DNA of 62,397 bases, filler included. It is 4 parts of 4 records of this genome, joined end to end, with 100 filler letters (N's around TTAATTAATTAA, not from the genome) between each part and the next. Parts side by side here need not be neighbours in the genome. Positions count along the whole stretch, not along the records: positions 42,324 to 52,724 come from SRR31156797_164; 3 more parts are not named here. One strand, written 5' to 3'. Below are positions 39,879 through 62,297 of this stretch, piece after piece. Position 1 is the first letter of the stretch, and each line of letters starts with the position of its first letter. Below the pieces are notes generated by a model. That model searched no databases and was not told where the DNA came from. It was given only the letters and a program-made list of their open reading frames with translations. A program made the translations under genes and the position numbers.

Positions 39879-39999
39879 TCAGCTAAATTGATAGGTTGCT
39901 TGGGTATTTTATATTCTTAATCAAATTGCATTAAGGAATTGCTAAGCATATAAGGTTTATATACTATTTTTTATATTTTTGTGCAATATTCTTTATGTT

Positions 40000-40290
40000 A
40001 TGGATTTATCTCTTATTTTTGATAAGTGTAACAGTTTTGTAGAAAAGTCCATTGGTGATGAAATGGTTTTAGTACCTTTAAGTAACAATGTGGCAGATAT
40101 GAATAAGGTTTACACTTTAAATGAAGTAGGGGCTTTTTTGTATAATAACATTGATGGTCACAAAAACATAAAAGAATTAAAGAGTGAATTGATTGAAAAA
40201 TATGAGGTCTCCGATGAGGTGGCATTAAAAGATATTAATAGTTTTATTAACGATATGGTTAATAAAGGCGTTTTATTCGAAAAACAATAG
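40000..40290 (+). CDS. PqqD-family / RiPP recognition element protein
   Basis: IGDEMVLVP, YTLNEVGAFLY..IDG and EKYEV....ALKDI..FI..M..KG pattern. Confidence 0.85.
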   Translation: MDLSLIFDKCNSFVEKSIGDEMVLVPLSNNVADMNKVYTLNEVGAFLYNNIDGHKNIKELKSELIEKYEVSDEVALKDINSFINDMVNKGVLFEKQ

Positions 40291-40311
40291 TTTAGAATAA
40301 GATTGATTTGA

Positions 40312-40536
40312 ATGAAAAAAAAGGATTTAATAAAAAGAGAATATAATAAGCCGGCTGTTGAAGTTGTGGAGGTTGATCATGAGATTTCATTGGTGATGAT
40401 GACAGGACCGCCTGCAGATGATGATATTCCAGAATTTGAAGCAGCTAAAGGGGTTGAAAAAGGTCCGATGCAGGCATCATCTCCGTCTTCAGTTTCAAAT
40501 CCTTTTGGAGGATCTTCTCCTGATTATGATAATTAA
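40312..40536 (+). CDS. Putative RiPP precursor peptide (74 aa)
   Basis: Basic leader with YNKPAVEVV (YxxP motif) then an acidic, Pro/Ser-rich tail; lies between the RRE and kinase-like genes. Confidence 0.65.
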   Translation: MKKKDLIKREYNKPAVEVVEVDHEISLVMMTGPPADDDIPEFEAAKGVEKGPMQASSPSSVSNPFGGSSPDYDN

Positions 40537-40545
40537 TGCTGGCGT

Positions 40546-41454
40546 ATGGGGGAGGTTGTTTCTAATTTAATACTCCAAATCGCAGAAATTAATTTTAATT
40601 GTTGTTTTTTCTATCCACTGGTTCCGAATAAAAAGGGATCTATCAATCATTACATAAATACAAAACCAGGTGGCGAACCTGATTATACCTTAGTTTATAA
40701 AATAATATCTTCTGTAGATACAGAAGGATATGTTTTAATGTTTAAAGGCGAGCCGGAAGAGAATGAATTCTTAAATTACAATTGGCGAGTTTTTAGAAAA
40801 GCTGAAAATATTTTAATAGTTGTAGATTTTCTGGATGCAACAGGAATAAAATCTATAGCTGCTAAATTAAAAAAAGATTCAGCTTCTGTAAGAATCGAAA
40901 TCGTTCCTTGCGATACTACTTTAGAAGCGGAGTTAGCTGTTGATCCTTTTATTCATCCATTGGGTTCTTTGTTATTGTTTTATTTAATGCAGCATAAGCA
41001 AGGTTTGTTGATTCATGCATCAGGAGTAATGTATGATGAAGAATGTTATTTGTTTACTGGTGTTTCTGGTATTGGAAAATCGACCATGGCAAACTTATGG
41101 GAGAAAAAAGGGGCTGCAGTTTTAAATGATGATAGGTTGGTCATTCGTCTTCAGGATGAAGTGAAGGTATATAATAACCCAATGCCTTATCAACAAGTTC
41201 CTCAAGGAGGAGTATTAAATAAAATTTTCTTATTAAAGCAATCGTCGACTAATTATATTGTTCCTGTTAAAGGAGTTGTGGCATATTCCAGATTATTGGG
41301 TAATTTTATTCAGCAGTTTTATGATAAAGATATCGTTAAGCGCCATTTAGAATTGATTGAAAAGTTGGTGCAATCGGTCCCTGTTTATGAAGTGGGTTTT
41401 ACGCCTGATACGGAAATTGTTGATCAAATTCTACAAATGAAGTCTGGTGAATAA
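40546..41454 (+). CDS. HprK-related P-loop kinase-like protein
   Basis: LIHASGV, GVSGIGKST and LNDDR motifs. Confidence 0.75.
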   Translation: MGEVVSNLILQIAEINFNCCFFYPLVPNKKGSINHYINTKPGGEPDYTLVYKIISSVDTEGYVLMFKGEPEENEFLNYNWRVFRKAENILIVVDFLDATGIKSIAAKLKKDSASVRIEIVPCDTTLEAELAVDPFIHPLGSLLLFYLMQHKQGLLIHASGVMYDEECYLFTGVSGIGKSTMANLWEKKGAAVLNDDRLVIRLQDEVKVYNNPMPYQQVPQGGVLNKIFLLKQSSTNYIVPVKGVVAYSRLLGNFIQQFYDKDIVKRHLELIEKLVQSVPVYEVGFTPDTEIVDQILQMKSGE

Positions 41455-41899
41455 GGATAGAAAAAAGGAATTCTTAATAGAAACAATGTCCTCGTTGCTG
41501 AATAAGGGCATGGATGTAAAAGTGCCAGTATATGGACTGAGTATGTTTCCTTTGTACCTGCCTGGAGATGAAGTTAGAATAAAGGCGACTGATATTTCTA
41601 AAGTACAAAAAGGTGATGTGGTATCGTTTGAAAGGAATTCTAGGATAGTATTGCATCGGGTGGTAAAAATCTTATCAGCTAAGAAACAAATAGTGACTAA
41701 AGGAGATGGCTTGGTTTTCAATGATGAGCAGATTAATTTTTCGGATATTGAAGGGCTTGTGGTGGAACATACGAGGAATGGTAAGGATCTTCATTTTTCG
41801 GAAAGGAAAAAGGTAAAGACATTCATGGCATTATTATCTCCAGTTATGGGTTGTATATTTTATTATACTTCCAGACTTTGGTATAAGTTAACGAACTGA
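41447..41899 (+). CDS. S24/S26-family peptidase
   Basis: GLSMFPLY..GD, GDVV, VLHRVV and TKGD; GTG start overlaps the upstream stop. Confidence 0.8.
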   Translation: MNKDRKKEFLIETMSSLLNKGMDVKVPVYGLSMFPLYLPGDEVRIKATDISKVQKGDVVSFERNSRIVLHRVVKILSAKKQIVTKGDGLVFNDEQINFSDIEGLVVEHTRNGKDLHFSERKKVKTFMALLSPVMGCIFYYTSRLWYKLTN

Positions 41900-42223
41900 T
41901 TTCTGATTTTTATAGTGAAGTTTATATTTCATTGCTTGTTAAAAAAAGTAACTGTAAAATTACTGTGATAATGCTCTGGGTTATGTTGTTTGTAATGAGT
42001 TGTTTGTGGTGTTGGGTTTGTTTTTTGACAATTGGAGGTGTTATCTAATTTGGCTATAAAAGCCTGTTTGGAAGAATTATGTCTTGAAATCTACTGAATA
42101 TTACAGGAAACCCAGTTGAAACGAATTGTTTTTGGCATATTACTGCTTTGAATTAGCTTTTGTGTGATTCTTCTTCGAGTCATGTTCGCAACCGCTTCGT
42201 AAGCGCTTCGCAAAGCTTCGATA

Positions 42224-42323
42224 NNNNNNNNNNNNNNNNNNNNNNNNNNNNNNNNNNNNNNNNNNNNTTAATTAATTAANNNNNNNNNNNNNNNNNNNNN
42301 NNNNNNNNNNNNNNNNNNNNNNN
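42224..42323. other. Artificial contig linker
   Basis: N44-TTAATTAATTAA-N44. Confidence 0.98.
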
Positions 42324-42348
42324 GCGAGTTCGAGTCTCGTTTCTCGCT
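42324..42348 (+). tRNA. 3' part of a tRNA, probably tRNA-Gly (truncated by the contig start)
   Basis: GCGAG-TTCGAGT-CTCGT T-arm plus TTCTCGCT acceptor strand, nearly identical to the tRNA-Gly(GCC) 3' end; the anticodon is not visible. Confidence 0.75.
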
Positions 42349-42365
42349 CAAAATCCAATAAGGAT

Positions 42366-42449
42366 GCCCAGGTGGTGGAATTGGTAGACACGCTGGACTT
42401 AAAATCCAGTGGCCTTTTGGCCGTGCGGGTTCAAGTCCCGCCCCGGGTA
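42366..42449 (+). tRNA. tRNA-Leu(TAA)
   Basis: D-arm GGAATTGGTAGAC, anticodon arm CTGGA-CTTAAAA-TCCAG, long variable arm GGCC-TTTT-GGCC, T-arm GCGGG-TTCAAGT-CCCGC. Confidence 0.97.
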
Positions 42450-42453
42450 CAAT

Positions 42454-42495
42454 AACCCTCATAAACAGCAATGTTTATGAGGGTTTTGTTTTTTT
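42454..42495 (+). terminator. Intrinsic terminator after the tRNAs
   Basis: AACCCTCATAAACA-GCAA-TGTTTATGAGGGTT followed by a T tract. Confidence 0.85.
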
Positions 42496-42897
42496 AAGGG
42501 AACGAATGGGGGAACGTTTGTGAGTATTAAAATTTCAGTTTAAAATAACTAGATAATCTCAGAAAAGAATTTTTGATCCTTTAAAGAACCCATTTAAGGC
42601 GATTTACAACTATTTTATGAGATAATCTACGTCTAATCCCAATGCAATCATTCAAAGCCTTCAAAAGAATTGTAATGATCTTTTCATCGATGATTAGAGT
42701 TTAAACCTTCCCAGAAATATCACAATTAAATAACGAATCCATACAAGAAAAACTAATGAAGAATTCGTTATTTCGATAATAGTTTAAGAATAATAGGCAT
42801 TGGCAATAAATCAGTTGTTAAATTCATTTCTAAAACTTGCCTGAATATTCAAATTTATTGATAATTTCATGCCAATATTAAAGCTATAAATAATATT

Positions 42898-43184
42898 AAA
42901 CACCTGGCTATTGACCATGCATTGCGAAATCGTAATGTTAAAACTAATGTGAGAAATTAGATGAAGTTTGAAATATGAAGTAATCTATAAGTTATTATAT
43001 TGATTTATTATTTTATAATGATTCAATTATTATTTTATGATACTTTTTATGAATAATTATTCTCCCTTAAACAATAAGTTATTAATGATATTATTGGGCT
43101 CTTATAGTATTTATTAAAAATATTTATTTAACAAGTATTATATCTTAATAATGGTTCATACAAAAGAGAATACGCCAGGTGTTT
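42898..43184 (+). ncRNA. Retron msr-msd non-coding RNA (predicted)
   Basis: Terminal inverted repeat AAACACCTGGC-TATT (42898-42912) / AATA-C-GCCAGGTGTTT (43169-43184); unpaired G at 42913; short stem-loops at 42919-42938 and 42944-42960; long imperfect hairpin at about 43018-43159; adjacent to a retron-type RT. Confidence 0.8.
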
Positions 43185-44875
43185 TTTTAGACTTTAATTT
43201 TAAAGAAGATGTTAGAGCCAAATTTCAAAAAATACAGACGGTAAGACAATTTGCAGTTCTTCTAAATTTTATTGAGAAATCAAATAAGCCAGAGGATCTT
43301 AGAAAAAAAATTTCTGCAAGAGATTTGCACTTTTTGGCAATTTCAAAAGATCGAAGATATACGGGTTTTTTCATCTCTAAAAAAAATGGGGATAAAAGAA
43401 AGATAAATACGCCTGATGATTACCTTAAAAGAATTCAAAGTGTAATTAATACGCTATTGCAAATAATATTTGAGAATCACGTTCATTATAATACAAATGG
43501 CTTTTTAATAAGTAGAGATATTGTTAGAAATGCAATCCCACATGTAAACAAAAAATATTTATTAAACATTGATATTGAAAACTATTTTCCATCAATTCAG
43601 TTTCGAAGAATTAAAACTGTTTTGGGTCTTTCTCCTTTCAATCTAAAAGAATCTCGCGAGAAAATTGGATTCATCATTGCAAATATATGTTGTTATGATG
43701 GAGTTTTGCCACAAGGTGCTCCAACATCTCCGATTATATCAAATATTGTAACTCAAAAACTTGACCGAAGAATTACAAAGCTATGTAATAAAGAAAAGAT
43801 AAAATATAGTCGCTATGCTGATGATTTAAGTTTTTCATCAAATAAGGATATAAATAATAAATATTTCATAAAAAGAATATCAACCATAATCATATCGGAA
43901 AACTTTAAATTAAATGATAGTAAAACTAGACTTAAAACAAATAGAGATAGGCAACAAGTAACAGGAATAATAGTTAATCAGAAGCTCAATGTGAGCAGAA
44001 AATATATTCAAAAAACAAGAGCAATATTAAATAATTGGGAAAAGGGAGGTCCTGAATTCGCACAAGAGAAATTCAACTTACATTATTTAATCGAGGATAA
44101 GGGATTACCAGATTTCAGAAAAGTACTATCTGGATATATTAGTTTTATTGGTTTAGTACGAGGGAGAGAAGATACTTTATACAAGAAACTTATTTTAAAG
44201 TATGGATTTTTAAAAAATCAAATTAACTATGATTTCATCTCTAATTTGGATGTGAAAAATCGTTTGGTAAAGGATAATATTAATATGGAAATGTTACTTT
44301 TTGAATCACTTCATTCAGATAGGGATCGTTTCATTTTGTTTTGTACTAGGGCATTTCATCAAATTGAAAATCTAATAAATTTTCATTATTGGAATAGATT
44401 TCCTGAAATGCCTAAATTACTCCAGTTTCTAAAAGAGAATAATCCAATTTTACAAAAAAAATGGAAAAAACACACACCTAATTTTAAGGAAATTGGAATG
44501 TTAAATATTGAACTGCTTGTTTATGCTTATGAAAAAGAATTTTATTTTGATAAAAAGATTCCATACCACAAGGATATTACATTGTTAAGAGAAATTCGTA
44601 ATGATAATTCACATCGATGTGAGGTTGTTAATTACAATATTCAACAAATTCGTATTGATTATGGTAAAATCAAAGAGTTAAATAAAAAATACTTGGAAAA
44701 ACATAGGAAATTTAGACCACTCACAACGAGTGAGGAGAAAATTAAGGTAAAATATAAGGTAATTAGACTTGTGGAAGATGAAAATTATAAACGTGTAAGG
44801 AAAATTTTAAAGAAAATTGTATCTCAAATTAAAGATACTAAGTATTCTACTCACTCCACTCTTCCAATCTCATAA
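43151..44875 (+). CDS. Retron-type reverse transcriptase with C-terminal HEPN-like domain
   Basis: NAIPH (region X, aa127), DIENYFPSI, LPQGAPTSP, YADD (aa222) and VTG (aa270); the ~220-aa tail has FHQIE and RNDNSH (aa483-488). Confidence 0.88.
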   Translation: MVHTKENTPGVFLDFNFKEDVRAKFQKIQTVRQFAVLLNFIEKSNKPEDLRKKISARDLHFLAISKDRRYTGFFISKKNGDKRKINTPDDYLKRIQSVINTLLQIIFENHVHYNTNGFLISRDIVRNAIPHVNKKYLLNIDIENYFPSIQFRRIKTVLGLSPFNLKESREKIGFIIANICCYDGVLPQGAPTSPIISNIVTQKLDRRITKLCNKEKIKYSRYADDLSFSSNKDINNKYFIKRISTIIISENFKLNDSKTRLKTNRDRQQVTGIIVNQKLNVSRKYIQKTRAILNNWEKGGPEFAQEKFNLHYLIEDKGLPDFRKVLSGYISFIGLVRGREDTLYKKLILKYGFLKNQINYDFISNLDVKNRLVKDNINMEMLLFESLHSDRDRFILFCTRAFHQIENLINFHYWNRFPEMPKLLQFLKENNPILQKKWKKHTPNFKEIGMLNIELLVYAYEKEFYFDKKIPYHKDITLLREIRNDNSHRCEVVNYNIQQIRIDYGKIKELNKKYLEKHRKFRPLTTSEEKIKVKYKVIRLVEDENYKRVRKILKKIVSQIKDTKYSTHSTLPIS

Positions 44876-44960
44876 TGTATTTTTTAATTCTTATTTGTCA
44901 GTTCAATAAAATAATGCCATAGTATAATACTATCATTTAAAGACTTTCGAGAATGTGCAG

Positions 44961-45039
44961 AAAACATGAGTTTACAGAGAATCACACTCTACAATAAACT
45001 ACTTTTTAAGCGTTTATTAAGACGGATTAGCGGAGAAAC
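44961..45039. repeat. Copy 1 of an imperfect ~80-bp direct repeat
   Basis: AAAACATGAGTTTACAGAGAATCACACTCTACAATAAACTACTT...GACGGATTAGCGGAGAAAC aligns with 52542-52620 and 52677-52724. Confidence 0.85.
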
Positions 45040-45240
45040 AAGCTAATTGATCAGGTTTTAATTACCAGGGTACACCTTACAGGAAGTTGACATAGAGTAT
45101 TTATGAGGTTAAAGTTTCACTAGAATTGCAATTTTACTCAGTAATCCATAGTTCTGGTGCATCTTAGGTAAATTTATATTTATATTATTACTCCGATTTA
45201 CTCCCCACTAATTTTCAGACTTTTGGATATTCAAGCAATA

Positions 45241-45485
45241 TTATTTCCGACTTGAATTAATTTTATAATCAATTAATAACTTACCTTCAATTGCATTTAA
45301 TGATTCAAAATTCACAAAACAAGTATCATGGTACCAATCTGAATTGTAATCTACTTTAAGCCTTCCTGATATAGTATCTGATTTATAAAGAACGGTATTA
45401 ATCCATCCTTTTGATAGAACACCACTTGTTGTCAACCAGATCTACCTTTTCAACATACTCTATTCGATTTTTGAATAAGCCAATT
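45241..45485 (-). pseudogene. Possible degraded gene fragment
   Basis: 64-codon ORF with no good start; the frame continues upstream through one TAG (IGLFKNRIEYVER*IWLTTSG) up to the stop of the preceding gene. Confidence 0.3.
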
Positions 45486-45487
45486 CA

Positions 45488-47779
45488 CTAATTCCTTTCA
45501 AAAATTGCATCGATATCACTCTCTGATTTTTTTTGAGCGGAAAATAGTCCTCTATATTCACCATCATAACTATCATGATATGTTCTACTAATATACTCAT
45601 CTACTTCTTTATCGACATCTACACTTTCTACTATATCCGAATCATCAACAGATACATACTTGAATAATTCTTCATCAAGATCAGATAATATTGAATCAAG
45701 AATCGATTCGATCTCTCCTTGTATTCCTGAATAATCTATATCATAATCTACATCTCCATCGTCATTGCAGTATCCATTAATATATTGACCTATATCCGCA
45801 GAACTCTTATTATCTTCGAGCACGTCTCTTAAGAATGAATCTACCTCTTCACCTAGATTTTCAAAAAGCATTTCATCTTTAATCTTATACTCTTTTATTA
45901 GTTTCACTACCAAATTAATCTCTATTTCATCTAAAGAATTGCACTTAATATATTCGGTAACAAAAGAAAAATCCTTGATTTTAAGACAATCTTTAAACTC
46001 TAGAAGCAATTCCAAAAGTTCATATATCTTTCTCCCTTTAACATATTTATAATTTGACATTTCGTTAACCAAACTAGCTATTTTGCAGACTATGTGAGGG
46101 TTAGTGAAATTTAAGCTAGAAAGCAATATTAGATAATCCCATTCTCCCAATTTTATTTTGGCTTTGTAGAAATGTTCAAACAACTCATTTTGAATATCCT
46201 GAATTGATTGTTTTGATATTTTTTTATTTAATAGTAAGCTTCTCAGAAAAACGATAGAAGAATATGAACCAAGAGATTTTAATATGGATATAATTAATTC
46301 ATTTTCTTCTAAATAGTAGTTTAAAATAAAATCACTAATGGAGGGATTAAACATAGAGTATTCATATAAATCACCACGTATATGACTCCGATTTAACATG
46401 GATTTTATTGCCAATTTCCTAACCGTATTAAAACTACCATCAGTATGATCAATTTGAATTTTAAATTTGCTTCTATAAGTTGAATAAGCCCTTCTCAACT
46501 GTTTTTCACTTATTTGTCCTGAGTTAAAAACAGTTAAAAAGGATAATACTCTTACAGAGTCATCAATTTGATTTTGAAAATAGTTACTCCAAATATCTTC
46601 AGGATTATCAAGTTTATTAACTATATAGTTCCAATATTGATCTGGTTTAATTGCAGAAACTCGTTTATTATCCGTTATAAATTCAACAATCCTAGGATTA
46701 AAGTTTTTATGACTTATGATATTCTTGTACCTTTCTTTTTTATATATCTCGTCAATGTAATTGATATCGAGGTTTGAATGATAAATATGATTATAAAGGA
46801 TTTTTGCTTTATCTATGTCTGATAAACTTTCAATTTTTAACAAGAACTCATCTTCTCTAATATTTTTATTTTGAAATTGATGACTCAAACTAACAGCTTT
46901 TGTAAGGATGTTTGTTCTAGAAGTAAGAATGAATTTTTTTGAGTTATCATGTTTAACTCTATTAATGAATTTTACTATATGAGAATCTCGTTTTTTACTT
47001 ATAGCATCATACATGTTGCTACCTAGAAAATCATCACAATAAAATATTATTTTCTTGTTTTCTTTTTCACGAAACAATTGCTCAGCTTCACTAATAGATT
47101 CTTCAATATCACAAAACTCATATCCTTTTGCGATATAAAAAAGAGCTAAATTATTTGCTAGGGTCGTTTTTCCAATTCCTGGTTCACCTGAAATAATAAT
47201 AACATTATTATTCTTTAAAATCTCAGCTCCTTTTTTATGGTTATTTGTAATAACGTATCTCTCATTATGGGATTTAATTTCTTTTATTGTGCTTTCACTT
47301 CTGCCTTTAATGGCATTATGAAGTAAAATGTCTAATACCTGTGTACTTGTTATCCACAGTTTATAATTCTGTTCAACAATATTTTGGTTTTCTTTTTTTG
47401 AAAGAAAACTATTAATATCGCCTTCACCCCAGACATCTGACTCGGATTTAATATAGGGAGAAAATATAGTAGATATTTCTTTTTTGTTCTCTCTTGATAA
47501 TGAAATAGAACTAATAAAAATGTACCTAGCGGGCTTAAGTTTTTTTACTTTATGGACTTCCTCTTTCTTTAATTTACTAATTAAACCCCGATATCCTGTC
47601 CTCCAATAATGCTTACATTGGATAATACCTTCTTTTTTACCAATCCAAAAACGTCCATCAACTCCACCATCTTTACCCGCTTTGAATTTCTCAATTTTAA
47701 GATTCAGAACAGCTGAAATAATATCAGCAGATAGAGATTCAAACTCTCGGTCATTTAATTTAGATAAAAAGTACTCCAT
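45488..47779 (-). CDS. Mrr-like restriction endonuclease fused to STAND-type (nSTAND3-like) NTPase
   Basis: N-terminal EFE..DGGVDG..IIQCKHY; Walker A GEPGIGKTT, Walker B CDDFLG, ILTSR and FNPRIVE; very acidic C-terminus. Confidence 0.8.
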   Translation of the reverse strand: MEYFLSKLNDREFESLSADIISAVLNLKIEKFKAGKDGGVDGRFWIGKKEGIIQCKHYWRTGYRGLISKLKKEEVHKVKKLKPARYIFISSISLSRENKKEISTIFSPYIKSESDVWGEGDINSFLSKKENQNIVEQNYKLWITSTQVLDILLHNAIKGRSESTIKEIKSHNERYVITNNHKKGAEILKNNNVIIISGEPGIGKTTLANNLALFYIAKGYEFCDIEESISEAEQLFREKENKKIIFYCDDFLGSNMYDAISKKRDSHIVKFINRVKHDNSKKFILTSRTNILTKAVSLSHQFQNKNIREDEFLLKIESLSDIDKAKILYNHIYHSNLDINYIDEIYKKERYKNIISHKNFNPRIVEFITDNKRVSAIKPDQYWNYIVNKLDNPEDIWSNYFQNQIDDSVRVLSFLTVFNSGQISEKQLRRAYSTYRSKFKIQIDHTDGSFNTVRKLAIKSMLNRSHIRGDLYEYSMFNPSISDFILNYYLEENELIISILKSLGSYSSIVFLRSLLLNKKISKQSIQDIQNELFEHFYKAKIKLGEWDYLILLSSLNFTNPHIVCKIASLVNEMSNYKYVKGRKIYELLELLLEFKDCLKIKDFSFVTEYIKCNSLDEIEINLVVKLIKEYKIKDEMLFENLGEEVDSFLRDVLEDNKSSADIGQYINGYCNDDGDVDYDIDYSGIQGEIESILDSILSDLDEELFKYVSVDDSDIVESVDVDKEVDEYISRTYHDSYDGEYRGLFSAQKKSESDIDAIFERN

Positions 47780-56079: not shown

Positions 56080-57585
56080 TTAGAAATAAAGATATCTGTG
56101 GCAATCAGTACAATTTGCTTCTTTCCAGGCTTCATCAATGTTAACCGGATGTTTAAACTCTAGTGATTCTCTGTGTTTTCCAATCTCATATTTTCCTGGC
56201 ACGCCTTGTAGTAAAATTGAGTGGCACATATTGCAATCCTTCGAAATGCGCTTACCTTCATTTGATACGTGATTATTGTCATGACATCTGAAGCATCCAT
56301 TATATTCCAAATGACCAATATGATCTGGATATGCATCCCAGTTAGCCTTCATTTCAGGAAACATATTTTTACTGAAGCTCTTAATAGTTCCAGCAATTGC
56401 AGTTTCAATTAACTCATACTTTTCTGCGTAAATGACCGGATAATTATCCTTATAAAAATTTAAGATTCTATCCTCTATAACCACTTTAGCAGTGTCTCTT
56501 GTATTAAATTGCTCATTAAAAAGAATATCCATTGTAACCCTCTTAATTTCAGGCAATTCTTTTGGGATTAGTCCTCCTGCAATAGCATTATCAATGAATA
56601 ATTGCGGCACTAAAAACTTATGCGAAGGCCGATTATGACAATCCATACAGTCCATTTTTCTAATCTCAGCCACAGCCTTTACAGAATCTTCTATAGGCTC
56701 CCACTCATTCTCATAAATAATAGTATCGCCTGTCTCAAGATTTATATATCGTATCCAGGGCAGAAACTCACGTTTCTCATCACTGGCTATATACTCAATT
56801 TTAACATTTTCATTATTGTGCCAATGTATTCCTTTCTGATTCACAAATGCAGTATGCTCAGCACCAATTTTCATGTTGAGGTGAATATCCCATTCCGTAT
56901 TGACTGAATCTGCCAAAAAATGCTTTTCATAACGTAACTGACTTGAGTAAAACTTTTGAGGCCAATGGCACTGTTCACATGTTTCACGAGCAGGTCTCAG
57001 GTGCTTAATAGGTGTTTGAATTGGTTTTGGGTATTTCTTGGCTATAACTGAATAAACCTGATAGGCACCAGATAATTTTGATTTCACATACCATCCGGCA
57101 CCTTCTCCAACATGACATTCGGTACAAGTAACCCTTGCATGAGGTGAGCCTTGATACGTAGTATATTCTGGTTCCATTACAGTATGGCAAACTGTTCCGC
57201 AAAACTCCACTGATTCTGTAATATGAAATGCCTGATAACTTCCCACCGCTGATAATACAAGAAAAAGCAATGTTCCAAAAACAAAAATAACAGATGCAAC
57301 ACGTGTGCGAGGATTATTAAAATCAATAACTCTCCATCGCAATGGATCATGATTATCATCTCTGGCAAATCGCCTGGCTGTTTTAAACATTCCTATTGGA
57401 ATAAAAATTAACCCAAAAACTAAAAAAACAGGAAGGACCATATACATTAAAATGCCAATATAGGCACCCCCTACATCAAAGAAATAGGTAAGAATAAACA
57501 GGAATGCAAAAATTGCCAATGCGGTAATACTTAGAATTGCACCTAGTAGTGAAATCTTATTGAAAAAAGTTTTAGGTAATTTCAT
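56080..57585 (-). CDS. NapC/NirT-family membrane multiheme cytochrome c (ImcH-like)
   Basis: Three N-terminal TM helices; TESVEFCGTVCH (CxxxCH) plus six CxxCH motifs, seven hemes in total. Confidence 0.85.
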   Translation of the reverse strand: MKLPKTFFNKISLLGAILSITALAIFAFLFILTYFFDVGGAYIGILMYMVLPVFLVFGLIFIPIGMFKTARRFARDDNHDPLRWRVIDFNNPRTRVASVIFVFGTLLFLVLSAVGSYQAFHITESVEFCGTVCHTVMEPEYTTYQGSPHARVTCTECHVGEGAGWYVKSKLSGAYQVYSVIAKKYPKPIQTPIKHLRPARETCEQCHWPQKFYSSQLRYEKHFLADSVNTEWDIHLNMKIGAEHTAFVNQKGIHWHNNENVKIEYIASDEKREFLPWIRYINLETGDTIIYENEWEPIEDSVKAVAEIRKMDCMDCHNRPSHKFLVPQLFIDNAIAGGLIPKELPEIKRVTMDILFNEQFNTRDTAKVVIEDRILNFYKDNYPVIYAEKYELIETAIAGTIKSFSKNMFPEMKANWDAYPDHIGHLEYNGCFRCHDNNHVSNEGKRISKDCNMCHSILLQGVPGKYEIGKHRESLEFKHPVNIDEAWKEANCTDCHRYLYF

Positions 57586-57613
57586 CTGTTTATCTTTAAT
57601 TTAAACAAAAGCC

Positions 57614-57645
57614 AAAAAAAAGGATGATTGTTGTCAATCATCCTT
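57614..57645 (-). terminator. Terminator-like hairpin between the cytochrome b and ImcH-like genes
   Basis: AAGGATGATTG-TTGT-CAATCATCCTT with a T-run following on the minus strand. Confidence 0.7.
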
Positions 57646-57658
57646 GAGTATCTAATTA

Positions 57659-58279
57659 CTATTCATGTTCGTGATATCCAGTGATAATACTTTTATAATT
57701 TTTTAATGGATGTTTACCTACAGAGGCAACATATAGATGGATAACTAGAAAAAGAGAAATGAAATACCCAACTATTGCATGCAGCATAGCTGTTAATTGA
57801 ATCCCATTAACATCAAATACTTCATTTACTATAATTTCAGGAAATAGAAGGGCCAGTCCTGTTATAATAACTAGCGGCATCAGGATATACATCGTAACTG
57901 TGTATGAAATACGTTGCAGTGGATTAAACTTATTCTCTTCACTTATTGGAAATGGTTTTGGTTCACCTTTAAAATATCCAAACATATAATATTTTGCTTG
58001 AAGAATTAATCGTTTCATGAGCCCCTTCAACTTCATCCTGTACTGTAATCCATTCTGAAACAATCGATTAAACGCGAAGAAAAACAAGTAGCTGATTACG
58101 GCAATTACTCCAAAAATGTTATGCAAAGTAATAGAAAGGTCAAATGCCATGAATGGATACTCCATGTCTGCATAATGAAGACTCACACCAGTCACAATTA
58201 ACATAATAATACATATAGCATTAACTCCATGCCAAATACGTAACCAAACCGGATATAAATACATTTTCTTACTTTCCAT
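57659..58279 (-). CDS. Di-heme cytochrome b, 4 TM (CbcB/PhsC-like)
   Basis: RIWHGVNA, LHNIFG, KFNPLQR and LH...HLY heme-b ligands. Confidence 0.85.
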   Translation of the reverse strand: MESKKMYLYPVWLRIWHGVNAICIIMLIVTGVSLHYADMEYPFMAFDLSITLHNIFGVIAVISYLFFFAFNRLFQNGLQYRMKLKGLMKRLILQAKYYMFGYFKGEPKPFPISEENKFNPLQRISYTVTMYILMPLVIITGLALLFPEIIVNEVFDVNGIQLTAMLHAIVGYFISLFLVIHLYVASVGKHPLKNYKSIITGYHEHE

Positions 58280-58281
58280 AA

Positions 58282-59205
58282 TTACTTTCTTTTTATAATT
58301 CGCATTATAATATGTATAAAAATACCACCAAATGTTAGGGCAAAAATTAACAAACTTATGTTATTTAAATACTTGTTTCTATTTGCTCCAATTATATAAG
58401 CATCATTCAATATCAGATCATTGTAAAAACCAATACCACGATCCTTAATTTTTTCATATTTGTATAGCTTATTACTTAACATTGAATTCGTTGAATGACA
58501 TTCGACACATTTACGAACTGCCTGTTCCTTAGGAACAATATGGTGCAATGCTTCAGAGGTATCTGTAACAGCTGTGTGGCAATCAATACAGCGAACATGT
58601 TCAAAGTGCAACGCTTGATTGGGTAGCCAGTCATGTGTTTTTAGAATTTGAGGATTTTCATGGGCCGACAACATTTCGTACTTATCCTTGTCATTATGAC
58701 AATTCAAGCAACGGTTGTTGTTGTATTGTATTAACTCCGACATTTTAGAATTGACAATTTTATTGGAGTGTGGATCATGGCACAATTCACATTGAAACCG
58801 ATCCCCAAAGGCTTCATAATGAACGCTCTTTTGAACTTCCTCGTTTATTGTTTCAAAATCATGACAAAGCGTGCAACTCATTTTAGGCTCCAACTTCAAT
58901 TCGGCCATATGTGGATATGTTTCATATTCTGCCGAATGACAGTCTGTGCAATAATGATTTTTGTGCTCTCCCAATAAATAGCTTACTGAATCAATAACAA
59001 AATAGGGATTCATTAATTTTCGTTCAGTAATTTCAGCAACTTCATTATAAAATGAATAATACTTGTTCCCGTGGCATTGGAAACAGTGCCTGTTTTCTTG
59101 TGACATTTCCGCCTTTTCTTCTTCATCCTGTGCTTTTACCAAAGCGCTCTGACAGAAAGCAATGGAAAAGAATAGTAAAGGAAAAATTAATTTTTTCATA
59201 TTCAT
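58282..59205 (-). CDS. Heptaheme cytochrome c with C-terminal membrane anchor (CbcA-like)
   Basis: Signal peptide, seven CxxCH motifs, HDWLPNQALH, C-terminal TM containing a His; ends 2 bp before the cytochrome b gene. Confidence 0.85.
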   Translation of the reverse strand: MNMKKLIFPLLFFSIAFCQSALVKAQDEEEKAEMSQENRHCFQCHGNKYYSFYNEVAEITERKLMNPYFVIDSVSYLLGEHKNHYCTDCHSAEYETYPHMAELKLEPKMSCTLCHDFETINEEVQKSVHYEAFGDRFQCELCHDPHSNKIVNSKMSELIQYNNNRCLNCHNDKDKYEMLSAHENPQILKTHDWLPNQALHFEHVRCIDCHTAVTDTSEALHHIVPKEQAVRKCVECHSTNSMLSNKLYKYEKIKDRGIGFYNDLILNDAYIIGANRNKYLNNISLLIFALTFGGIFIHIIMRIIKRK

Positions 59206-59292
59206 ATTAATGCTGTTTAAAAATGAAATTTTGACTACGATATATACAAATAGATTTTAACGATTTATTAAGATAAAGATAAGGGCAATTCA

Positions 59293-59341
59293 GTCAATAT
59301 AAATTGACATTAAAAACAGTGAGAATTGATTTTTCTCAATT
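59293..59341. promoter_or_regulatory. Dyad sites in the divergent cytochrome promoter, one FNR/CRP-like
   Basis: GTCAAT-ATAA-ATTGAC (59293-59308) and TTGAT-TTTT-CTCAA (59326-59339). Confidence 0.5.
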
Positions 59342-59501
59342 AAAAAATGAAAATTAAACAACTATAAAGGTGATGAGTATTTAATATATTGCTAATCAAA
59401 ATCAAGGACGTAACTATATTAAAATCAGCTATTTAGTAATTCAAAAATTTGACGAATACATTAAAATAAAATATCTTTATGAAAACTTAAAAGCTAAAAA
59501 A

Positions 59502-62297
59502 ATGAATATAAAATCAACAAGATTATGCTTTAGTGCATTGCTGATTTTTTCCTTTCTTATACAGTTTAATCTACTTTACGGACAATCAGATGAGGATTGT
59601 TTTATGTGCCACGAAGACAAAGAACTGGTTGGAGTTATTAATGGCGTTCAGAAATCAATGTTTATAAGGAAAGATGTGTTGAAAGGTTCAGTTCACGAGG
59701 GTGTCGATTGTGCCTTTTGCCATGCTGATGCGGGAGATGGTGATTTTCCTCATGAAGAAGACCTGAAACCTGTTAATTGCGGAGATTGCCATGACGAAGC
59801 AGATAGAGATTTCTATAAAGGCATTCACGGACAGGCTTTAGCTCTAGGTGAGAGATATGCACCTACATGTAAAGAATGCCATGGAACTCACCAGATATTG
59901 CCACCCTCTAATCCCAAGTCTTTAACTTACAAAATGAATATTCCCGTATTATGCGGAAAATGTCATAAAGAAGGGGCACCTGTTGCAAGAGCTTACAATA
60001 TTTCAGAACATAATATTATAGAAAACTACAGTCAGGGAATTCACGGAAAAGGACTTTTTAAAAGTGGGTTGATTGTAACGGCCACTTGTAATAATTGTCA
60101 TGGCAATCACCTGATATTACCACATACAAGTCCAAATTCAAGCATATATGTAAATAACATAGCTAAAACTTGTATGCAATGTCACGCCCGAATTGAAGAT
60201 GTTCATACAAAAGTTATTAAAGGTGAACTTTGGGAAAAAGCACCTGGAGCAATACCTGCATGCACAGATTGCCACCGCCCCCATAGAGTGGATCCGGAAA
60301 ATGTTGCAGCAACGATGTCTAACAATTCATGTATGAAATGTCATGGCAATGAGGATGTTCATAAAATGGTAGAAGGAGAAAAAATCTCATTAAAAGTAGA
60401 TGAAGGAGAGTTACATAAGTCTGAACACAAGAACATTACTTGTGTAAAATGTCATACTGATGTTACACCTCACCTAGAAAGACCATGTGAAACAGTTACT
60501 AGAGTTGATTGTGATAACTGTCATAACGAAGTTTCAACCAGGTACTTTGCCAGTGGACATGGCCAGGCATATTTTAAGAAAGACGAAAGTGCACCATACT
60601 GTACAGATTGTCATGGTACCCATTTTGTTCAATCCAGGTACGATGATACATCACCGACCTACCGAACAGCCATTCCGAGTTTATGTGGTAAATGCCACCA
60701 AAAAGACAATAAAGCGATAGAAGGCAAAGGATTAAAACAGGTAAATGCGCTGGCTGATTATTCGTCCAGTGTGCATGGCAAAGGAGTTATAGAAAAAGGC
60801 TTAACCGTTAGTGCTGTTTGCACCGATTGTCATACTACACACTATGCCCTTAAAGAAACTGATCCAAATTCATCAGTTCATCCTAACAATATTCCCGGAA
60901 CTTGCGCTAAATGCCATAAAGGAATTTATGATGAATATATTGCCAGTGATCATGATATATCGCATAATGTGGAAGGAGAAAAAGAATACCCTACATGCGC
61001 TGTGTGTCACTCATCACATACAATAACGGAAATTGATGATGATGCGTTCATGTCCGAGATCAACCATCAGTGTGGTAGTTGTCACGAAAAACTTACTAAA
61101 TCGTACATGGAAACATACCATGGTAAAGCCTATGCATTAGGTTATGAAGAATCAGCAAAATGTTCTGATTGCCATGGAGCACATAAAATACTAAACGTGC
61201 GTAACCCAGAATCAATGGTAAGTAAAGAAAATATATTGGCCACATGTATGCAGTGCCATCCAGATGCCAACGAAAGATTTACAGGCTTTTTAACCCATGC
61301 AACGCATGATAATCGCGACGAATATCCTGTACTATATTATACTTTCTGGGGAATGACTTTCTTACTGATAGGTGTATTTGCTTTCTTTGGAATCCACACA
61401 CTGTTGTGGCTACCAAGATCATTAAAAGAAAGAAAAAAGCGTAAACATCTTCACCATCCTAAAGGTAAAGCCGTTTATATTCGTAGATTTAAAACAAGGC
61501 ACAGAGTAACCCATATATTCGTAATTATTAGTTTCGTTATCCTTGCTCTAACAGGTATGATGCTCAAGTTTGCTCATATGGAATGGGCTAAAACACTATC
61601 CGATTTAATAGGTGGAGTAAAAGCCGCTGGTAACTGGCACCGATTTGCGGCCGTAATTACATTTGGTTATTTCATCTTCCACCTAACTATGATCATTTCT
61701 GCCAAATTTAAAAAGAAGATTAAAGTAAAGGATTTCATCTTTAGCGGATCATCATTAATGTTTAACAGGCAGGACTTTAGAGACTTTTGGGCTACTATTA
61801 AATGGTTCGTAGGCAAAGGACCAAAACCACAATATGGACGCTGGACTTACTGGGAAAAATTTGACTATATGGCTGTATTCTGGGGTGTTGCAGTCATTGG
61901 ATTGTCAGGACTAATCCTATGGTTCCCAGAGCACTTTACTAAATTCTTACCCGGATGGCTTATTAATGTCGCCATGATTATACATAGTGACGAGGCCTTA
62001 TTGGCAGTTGGATTTATATTTACTATCCATTTCTTTAATACCCACTTCAGACCAGAAGCATTTCCTATGGATACTGTAATATTTACAGGTCATTTACCTG
62101 AAGAGATTTACAAAGAGGACAGACCTAAGGAGTATGAAGAATTGGTGAGAACAGGTAAAATATCTGAAGTAAAAGTTGAAAAAGAATTTTCTAAGACCAG
62201 GATGCAAGTGATCAAAATCTTTGGATTCCTTGCTTTATCCATTGGCTTTATTCTGACACTGCTAATTATCTATTCGTTATTATTCGGATCACATTAA
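59502..62297 (+). CDS. 19-heme cytochrome c fused to a cytochrome b domain (expanded CbcL-like)
   Basis: Signal peptide; 19 CxxCH motifs counted; C-terminal TM domain with HRVTH, WHR, RWTYWEKFDYMAVFWG, IHSDEALLA and HFFNTH. Confidence 0.9.
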   Translation: MNIKSTRLCFSALLIFSFLIQFNLLYGQSDEDCFMCHEDKELVGVINGVQKSMFIRKDVLKGSVHEGVDCAFCHADAGDGDFPHEEDLKPVNCGDCHDEADRDFYKGIHGQALALGERYAPTCKECHGTHQILPPSNPKSLTYKMNIPVLCGKCHKEGAPVARAYNISEHNIIENYSQGIHGKGLFKSGLIVTATCNNCHGNHLILPHTSPNSSIYVNNIAKTCMQCHARIEDVHTKVIKGELWEKAPGAIPACTDCHRPHRVDPENVAATMSNNSCMKCHGNEDVHKMVEGEKISLKVDEGELHKSEHKNITCVKCHTDVTPHLERPCETVTRVDCDNCHNEVSTRYFASGHGQAYFKKDESAPYCTDCHGTHFVQSRYDDTSPTYRTAIPSLCGKCHQKDNKAIEGKGLKQVNALADYSSSVHGKGVIEKGLTVSAVCTDCHTTHYALKETDPNSSVHPNNIPGTCAKCHKGIYDEYIASDHDISHNVEGEKEYPTCAVCHSSHTITEIDDDAFMSEINHQCGSCHEKLTKSYMETYHGKAYALGYEESAKCSDCHGAHKILNVRNPESMVSKENILATCMQCHPDANERFTGFLTHATHDNRDEYPVLYYTFWGMTFLLIGVFAFFGIHTLLWLPRSLKERKKRKHLHHPKGKAVYIRRFKTRHRVTHIFVIISFVILALTGMMLKFAHMEWAKTLSDLIGGVKAAGNWHRFAAVITFGYFIFHLTMIISAKFKKKIKVKDFIFSGSSLMFNRQDFRDFWATIKWFVGKGPKPQYGRWTYWEKFDYMAVFWGVAVIGLSGLILWFPEHFTKFLPGWLINVAMIIHSDEALLAVGFIFTIHFFNTHFRPEAFPMDTVIFTGHLPEEIYKEDRPKEYEELVRTGKISEVKVEKEFSKTRMQVIKIFGFLALSIGFILTLLIIYSLLFGSH

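Follow-up and report, generated by a model that had tools for sequence, protein, structure and literature searches.

A putative retron ncRNA that reaches the start of a gene for a reverse transcriptase with a HEPN-like domain

Results

A predicted retron-type reverse transcriptase and its surroundings

The window, by which we mean the whole stretch of 62,397 nucleotides analysed here, carries at 42898–43184 a region that is closed by an inverted repeat and runs into a long open reading frame (ORF) on the same strand (Table 1). The ORF at 43151–44875 matches the reverse transcriptase (RT) family RVT_1 of Pfam (3.3e-22) and the PADLOC retron RT models RT-Protease_XI (2.2e-98), RT-TIR_XII (1.8e-90) and RT-Toprim_I-C (1.9e-87). 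The best matches in NCBIfam are likewise retron models, yet they stay below their curated cut-offs. A word-indexed search returned 4904 proteins at E ≤ 1e-10 among 8000 candidates scored; among the matches listed, 93 of 120 span 84% or more of the query at 44–62% identity, and those with a named source belong to Flavobacteriia and other Bacteroidota. Aligning 38 of the homologs showed the motifs N127-A128-x-x-H131, Y222-A-D-D225 and V270-T271-G272 to be invariant or nearly so. NAxxH and VTG have been described as signatures of retron RTs (PMC13712802), and the ORF is predicted to encode an RT of the retron type.

Table 1. Features of the putative retron element in the window
Feature	Position	Strand	Description
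Conserved motif upstream of a1	42868..42886	+	TTCATGCCAATATTAAAGC in the window; GTTAGGCAAAATAT-like in homologs
a1 arm	42898..42912	+	11-nt core 42898-42908 and 4-nt extension TATT 42909-42912; perfect repeat, covarying
Candidate branching (priming) guanosine	42913	+	Invariant in 10/10 loci, directly 3' of the extended a1
msr hairpin 1	42919..42938	+	GCATTGCG-AAAT-CGTAATGT; 8-bp stem, AAAT loop; predicted by RNAalifold
msr segment, proposed earlier as hairpin 2	42944..42960	+	CTAAT-N7-ATTAG; conserved GTGAG(G/A)A motif
Presumed msd template region	42967..43153	+	Variable and very AT-rich; sole C-rich island TTCTCCC at 43060-43066
RT-HEPN-like fusion gene	43151..44875	+	574 aa; RT domain about residues 53-360; YADD at 43814-43825
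Conserved box	43154..43171	+	GTTCATACAAAAGAGAAT, 18 nt, immediately 5' of a2; RT residues 2-7 in the window
a2 arm	43169..43184	+	Extension AATA 43169-43172, bulged C43173, core 43174-43184; RT residues 7/8-12
C-terminal all-helical HEPN-like domain	44234..44872	+	Rx4H motif R483-H488 at 44597-44614

An Rfam search of 41500–45500 (E ≤ 10) matched a tRNA-Leu and no retron-like family. The tRNA gene (42366–42450) is accompanied by a terminator-like hairpin, and the retron element lies 450 nt downstream of it. Adjacency to a tRNA gene recurs in two of the ten related loci introduced below and is not a feature of the family. The 400-nt ORF-free gap between tRNA and retron contains a second perfect 11-nt inverted repeat, whose arms AAATAACGAAT (42728–42738) and ATTCGTTATTT (42763–42773) stand 24 nt apart. 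A motif resembling GTTAGGCAAAATAT is found about 12–50 nt 5' of a1 in all ten loci and is possibly a promoter element. Its match in a sigma-70 scan was not above background, and it does not fit TAnnTTTG, the pattern of Bacteroidota promoters.

On the other side of the retron, a minus-strand gene at 45488–47779 encodes a protein of 763 aa that combines a restriction endonuclease domain of the Mrr type at its N-terminus with an nSTAND3 NTPase (6.8e-48). This gene converges on the retron, which suggests that the element is set in a defence island. Elsewhere in the window, the plus strand at 39979–41899 encodes a PqqD-like protein (2.8e-15), followed by small and medium-sized ORFs that have no Pfam matches; the stretch may be a RiPP-type cluster. 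A gene cluster at 56080–62297 encodes multihaem cytochrome c and cytochrome b561-like proteins, with NapC/NirT domains, paired CXXCH motifs and MtrC-like domains.

A rare family built from an ncRNA and one protein

A metagenome search with an alignment of the C-terminal domain gave nine loci, seven of which were used; the other two, L091 and L093, come without their upstream part. Together with the window and two loci from genomes (L084 and L001), the seven (L085, L086, L087, L088, L089, L090 and L092) make up the ten loci compared throughout. The fusion ORF is the only element common to all ten flanks, and the module therefore consists of the ncRNA and one protein. In L084 (G098:C54:260482-262185) this ORF is interrupted by one in-frame TAG while the ncRNA is intact; the TAG may mark a pseudogene or come from an error in sequencing.

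Genome sampling showed the family to be rare. It was present in one of 401 genomes of a family-level sample and, searched with the C-terminal profile, in none of 401 of an order-level sample. A search of genome contigs with the full-length alignment yielded, among the matches listed, mostly other RT types, with L001 as the only family member. A search of genome contigs for single-protein loci found no relative, and viral contigs and plasmids contained no match to the family.

A covarying inverted repeat bounds the region

The sequence-only reading of this DNA had proposed an unannotated retron ncRNA at 42898–43184, bounded by an 11-bp inverted repeat. The repeat exists as claimed: AAACACCTGGC in a1 is perfectly complementary to GCCAGGTGTTT in a2, and the pairing extends through TATT and AATA across a single bulged base. 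Among 2000 dinucleotide shuffles of 42700–43400, a perfect 11-nt repeat at a spacing of 100–400 nt appeared in 608, and one with at least five G/C per arm, as in the window, in four. In DNA this rich in A and T, a bare 11-mer repeat is thus not rare, and one with arms of such G/C content is. The fold of 42890–43195 has a z-score of -3.9, and none of 100 shuffles folded equally well.

Comparison of the ten loci addresses the covariation and conservation that the earlier reading had called for. Each locus has a perfect or near-perfect repeat of 8–13 nt with its 3' arm positioned as in the window. The a1/a2 stem comprises 14 pairs, and all 140 cells of the alignment are paired, a count that overstates the number of independent events because the ten loci are related by descent and hold about five distinct arm variants. 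Compensatory changes on both sides are seen in eight of these pairs, namely six of nine in the core and two of five in the extension (100% of cells paired in both). The msr helices are less complete. The eight pairs of hairpin 1 are formed in 92.5% of cells and the five of hairpin 2 in 70%, with one pair changed on both sides in each. For the structure as a whole the covariation score is 0.288, as against 0.156 ± 0.017 in shuffles, and none of 500 shuffles reaches it. When the partners were slid by 1–3 columns, 34–46% of cells were paired, compared with 92% in the actual structure. RNAalifold predicted the a1/a2 helix and hairpin 1 from the ten-locus alignment, and the unconstrained minimum-free-energy fold is closed by a1/a2 in every locus.

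The compensated changes in a2 include a synonymous one (GTT/GTC) and two non-synonymous ones (CCA/TCT and GTC/ATC), and for each of them a1, which is non-coding, carries the matching change. In L085, L089 and L001 a2 itself is non-coding, and the stem persists there too. Both observations place the constraint on the RNA and not on the encoded peptide. The transcript is accordingly modelled with a1 (42898–42912) paired to a2 (43169–43184), and we are confident that the region 42898–43184 is a retron ncRNA.

The branch-position guanosine and the msr

The guanosine that had been singled out directly after the 5' arm, G42913, is borne out by the comparison, as it is invariant and sits within an equally invariant ATTGA. 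By analogy with characterised retrons it would be the priming nucleotide. The first of the two msr-like hairpins described earlier is present and conserved as well: five of its eight pairs never vary in the ten loci, two vary on one side and one changes on both. For the second hairpin the sequence is there and is conserved, but its 5-bp stem is weak. We ran nhmmer with profiles for the msr part and the conserved box; each gave one match per locus in all ten loci of the family, and none in 78 other RT loci or elsewhere in the window.

We also considered a long-range pairing between msr and msd. The GUGAGG of the msr (42949–42955 in the window) is complementary to the C-rich tract of the msd (43060–43066), and the complementarity recurs at a similar position in eight of the ten loci, where the pyrimidine tract lies 47–79 nt from the conserved box. 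The pairing beats 95% of shuffles in four loci only, the window not among them, and was not adopted because significance is absent locus by locus. In L001, GUAAUU replaces GUGAGG and, by eye, a complementary AAUUAC is present in the msd region. The duplex search picked, in L001 and the window, partners of the msr other than the AAUUAC and the C-rich tract.

A presumed msd that folds no better than shuffles and a near-invariant box

The presumed msd varies from 119 to 196 nt among the loci and aligns poorly. The sequence-only reading had drawn a long AT-rich hairpin here, and an imperfect 24-nt repeat (43026–43049 with 43129–43152, 79% complementary) is indeed present. Between msr and a2, though, none of the ten loci folds better than its shuffles (z from -1.34 to +1.02; window, -1.14), and RNAalifold found no conserved pair in the presumed msd of the ten loci. 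The specific msd pairs proposed earlier are therefore unsupported. Such an absence of folding signal above shuffles is unusual for a retron. Of the canonical retron layout that had been read into the region, the a1/a2 stem, the guanosine at the branch position and hairpin 1 stand; the msd hairpin finds no support, and the second msr hairpin is weak.

The box immediately 5' of a2 behaves differently from the msd. It is near-invariant across the ten loci, even in L085, L089 and L001, where it is non-coding and contains an in-frame TAA. By analogy with known retrons, it should be the template of the first bases of the msDNA.

The predicted start codon lies in or beside a2

ATG 43151 is the first ATG, GTG or TTG after the stop codon in the RT frame, and the next such codon is a TTG at codon 59. 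The earlier choice of this ATG as the start thus holds up, since a downstream start would delete conserved N-terminal residues and is unlikely on that account. The window has moved away from the family arrangement: at the site of the family ATG it has ACG (43172–43174), and the in-frame ATG that it is predicted to use lies 21 nt upstream, at the conserved 18-nt box. In six of the ten loci (L084, L086, L087, L088, L090 and L092) the a2 strand itself contains the ATG, between core helix and extension. In L085, L089 and L001 it follows the a2 core by 5, 8 and 13 nt, respectively. The distance from start codon to a2 strand is at most 22 nt in all ten. Among the predicted proteins, 23 of 38 start in the a2 column and four of 38 have a longer N-terminus. 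The 3' arm had been described as lying inside the RT coding sequence, which is correct, with the amendment that 43174–43184 corresponds to codons 8–12 rather than 7–12.

From these positions, the start of the RT gene is predicted to lie in or beside a2 throughout the family, and the ncRNA very probably does overlap the coding start. Because the ATG is outside a2 in three of the ten loci, a coding overlap is not in itself a requirement. It had further been suggested that ncRNA folding or processing may compete with translation, so that a toxic fusion would regulate itself. The predicted accessibility of the start does not bear this out: the mean unpaired probability around the start codon is lower with a1 than without it in seven loci and higher in three, including the window, and the window AUG is predicted to be paired either way (unpaired probability 0.06 with a1 and 0.05 without).

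Three loci with other retron RT types offer a comparison for the spacing. The best repeats of L006, L061 and L068 are perfect over 11–12 nt and have 3' arms ending 15–21 nt before the ATG; these are repeats alone, taken without covariation. Tight packing thus seems common in the RT clade, and the overlap would be its extreme. L068 encodes a protease fusion, and a hairpin in L006 resembles msr hairpin 1 of the window family.

An all-helical, HEPN-like C-terminal domain

The PADLOC type XI models align to residues 53–361 only (profile positions 17–325 of 506), and the type XII alignment also stops near residue 361. Residues 361–574 alone had no PADLOC or NCBIfam match at E ≤ 1, and residues 302–574 gave nothing meaningful against Pfam and PDB sequences. 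The C-terminal part is nevertheless well conserved: FCTxAFHQIENL and R483-N-D-x-S-H488 are invariant or nearly so in the 38 homologs, with R483, N484 and H488 strictly invariant.

An AlphaFold2 model of residues 302–574, built from a ten-row alignment, consists of helices only (pLDDT 83.7, pTM 0.79); the Rx4H segment, residues 185–192 of the model, has a pLDDT below 50. In an exhaustive VIA-align search with the model, HEPN proteins fill most of the top rows (1jog, 8xdj, 7ae2, AbiA 8oz7, 5yep, 2hsb, 4nqf and sacsin) at Z 7.5–8.1, a range in which a Z of about 8 can be reached by chance for helical bundles. The Atlas leads were all HEPN clusters of Csm6 or RnlA/LsoA (0.76–0.83), and Foldseek against the PDB returned nothing at E ≤ 0.001. 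Members of the HEPN superfamily are recognised by a fold of the four-helix-bundle type together with an Rx4-6H motif. As the Z-scores fall within the chance range and the motif loop is modelled at low confidence, we call the domain HEPN-like only. That it is a HEPN RNase effector is a fairly probable reading of the model, and the fold together with the motif suggests that the fusion protein may be toxic.

Since the model contains only helices, it is incompatible with the fold of a protease, TIR or Toprim domain, and the three known fusions of related RTs were each ruled out. In the case of a type XI protease fusion, the type XI models match the RT part only and the C-terminus is all-helical. 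For a type XII TIR fusion, the RT part alone matches, the model is again all-helical and Pfam shows no TIR match. For a type I-C Toprim fusion, the domain has no PADLOC or NCBIfam match, its model is all-helical, and, of the residues typical of Toprim (a conserved E and DxD/DxE), an invariant DxD is absent among the conserved C-terminal columns of the 38 homologs.

Discussion

A proposed retron mechanism and a possible role of the overlap

We think it likely that 42898–43184 is the msr–msd ncRNA gene of a single-protein retron, acting by the following steps. If the standard retron mechanism applies, the RT encoded immediately downstream would bind the conserved msr hairpin, and the invariant G42913 would provide the 2'-OH that primes synthesis. 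The RNA would be copied leftwards from G43168 through the box at 43154–43171 into the AT-rich region, giving the msDNA. The C-terminal HEPN-like domain is probably an RNase, and, by analogy with Retron-Eco2, the msDNA probably keeps it inactive until a phage disturbs the complex.

The geometry of the locus adds a further element to this proposal. In the window, the nucleotides copied first would include the AUG, and a2 would encode residues 8–12. One transcript could then not be the folded, reverse-transcribed template and the translated mRNA at once, and a transcript that has been reverse transcribed, its template part then being degraded, would no longer be translatable from 43151. If each transcript is either template or mRNA, the supply of fusion protein would be coupled to the supply of msDNA. 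We put forward such a regulatory role of the overlap tentatively.

The strongest alternative accepts the retron ncRNA and treats the coding overlap as compaction of a small mobile module, with no regulatory consequence. Translating ribosomes would open a1/a2 through their helicase activity, while the RT would use other copies of the RNA or processed ncRNA. We give this reading close to an even chance. It is in keeping with the three loci in which a2 lies wholly outside the ORF, with accessibility calculations that show no consistent effect of a1, and with the close packing that looks general in the clade, given the repeats that end 15–21 nt before the ATG in L006, L061 and L068. Against it, the start codon never strays more than 22 nt from the a2 strand, is held between the two helix parts in six loci, and has moved at least twice while always staying in the neighbourhood of a2.

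A second alternative is that the inverted repeat forms a hairpin by which translation of the RT mRNA is controlled, as an operator or attenuator, with no priming and no msDNA. The apparent lack of a stable hairpin in the presumed msd and the lack of an Rfam match would fit such an element, as would the long-held view that type XI retrons have no recognisable ncRNA (PMC7736814). An operator does not account, however, for the invariant G after the stem, the conserved msr hairpin, the retron signatures of the RT or the 18-nt box, which is conserved at the expected start of templating even when non-coding. We consider it improbable. Still less probable is a true start downstream of 43184, which would place a2 in the 5' UTR and abolish the overlap: the N-termini assigned by gene callers do vary within the family, but starting at the TTG of codon 59 would remove an N-terminal segment that includes the nearly invariant L38 and N39 and would cut into the PADLOC RT alignments, which begin at residues 25–53. 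Finally, the notion that a2 is conserved for an N-terminal peptide (x-G-V-F-L) can draw on the many homologs that begin M-S/P/A-G-V/I-F-L, but it has next to nothing left in its favour and is already contradicted, because a1, although non-coding, has a matching change for each one in a2, even the synonymous ones, and because L085, L089 and L001 keep the same stem with a non-coding a2.

Returning to the retron with a regulatory overlap, its furthest-reaching form is a retron type that has not been classified so far, with a clade-8-like RT joined to a HEPN RNase, an ncRNA family of its own, and a toxin titrated against its msDNA antidote from one and the same RNA. We regard this combination as rather unlikely as a whole. 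If it were true, one stretch of sequence would serve both as the start of the RT–toxin ORF and as priming stem with the nucleotides templated first. The different positions of the start codon, namely within a2, past a2, or, after a change from ATG to ACG, at a new ATG in the template box, would then amount to evolutionary tuning of the ratio of toxin to msDNA.

The less ambitious readings have consequences of their own. For a lineage of Bacteroidota retrons close to type XI, the locus provides an ncRNA backed by covariation, and a candidate RT–HEPN effector fusion now joins those with Toprim, TIR and protease domains known from the RT clade. The locus also shows that an ncRNA search can lose a2 if it stops at the start codon. 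Should the overlap regulate translation, it would be a compact means of balancing a self-toxic RT fusion against its msDNA. On the practical side, single-protein retrons whose ncRNA is defined are of interest as tools for writing DNA.

Comparison with known systems

The classification of Mestre et al. 2020 (PMC7736814) distinguishes 13 retron types, with Toprim (I-C), TIR (XII) and protease (XI) as the fusions described for RT clade 8. In the available part of that classification, HEPN occurs in type IX only and there as a separate gene. A 2026 SPIRE survey describes type XI-like Bacteroidota lineages whose RTs carry non-protease C-terminal extensions, and its text makes no mention of HEPN (PMC13712802). 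The literature searched on retron, HEPN, fused and Bacteroidota held no description of an RT–HEPN retron, and the fusion probably joins the RT to a kind of domain that is absent from published retron classifications.

A HEPN domain C-terminal to an RT-like polymerase is known from AbiA (PDB 8oz7; PMC8632793, PMC8934634). AbiA belongs, however, to the Abi/UG lineage according to these sources, whereas the RT in the window falls in a retron clade and has a templating ncRNA; no AbiA model is among the 25 best PADLOC rows for it. Type IX retrons resemble the window in pairing a retron with an effector of the HEPN type. As type IX is described, the HEPN protein comes from a separate gene, accompanied by a wHTH gene, and lacks the canonical H, and the RT is of clade 7 (PMC7736814). 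In the window, RT and HEPN-like domain form one protein, and the Rx4H motif of the domain is invariant.

The closest RT profile is that of the type XI retrons, RT-Protease_XI (2.2e-98), and type XI and XI-like retrons share with the window a Bacteroidota host (PMC7736814, PMC13712802). TXI_C2like, compared here by its description only, has an RT with a non-protease C-terminal extension, and the ncRNAs described for type XI-like retrons combine a1/a2 with stem-loops (PMC13712802). The window departs from type XI in that its fusion is without a protease domain and no WYL or DnaB_C neighbour was seen.

The arrangement of coding sequence and RNA recalls the type VI Retron-Vpa2, where, as reported, a coding sequence lies within the RNA closed by a1/a2 and its start codon is sequestered in structure (bioRxiv 10.1101/2025.10.22.683967). 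In type VI, the same report places a separate small toxin ORF inside the RNA, which is derepressed by the msDNA. In the window, by contrast, it is the start of the RT–effector fusion itself that would lie in or beside a2, as judged from sequence alone.

In overall organisation, the locus is most readily compared with Retron-Eco2 (Ec67) of type I-C, which likewise consists of one ORF that joins a clade-8-like retron RT to a C-terminal effector of the nuclease type (PMC12916289, PMC7736814). As far as these descriptions go, both have the ncRNA immediately upstream and no conserved accessory gene, and the RT-Toprim_I-C models match the RT part of the window protein at 1.9e-87. In the account given for Eco2, the Toprim nuclease is held caged by the msDNA until the phage nuclease DenB frees it, after which tRNAs are cut (PMC12916289). 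The two differ in the effector, which is a Toprim domain in Eco2 and, in the window, an all-helical HEPN-like domain that on its own has no PADLOC match.
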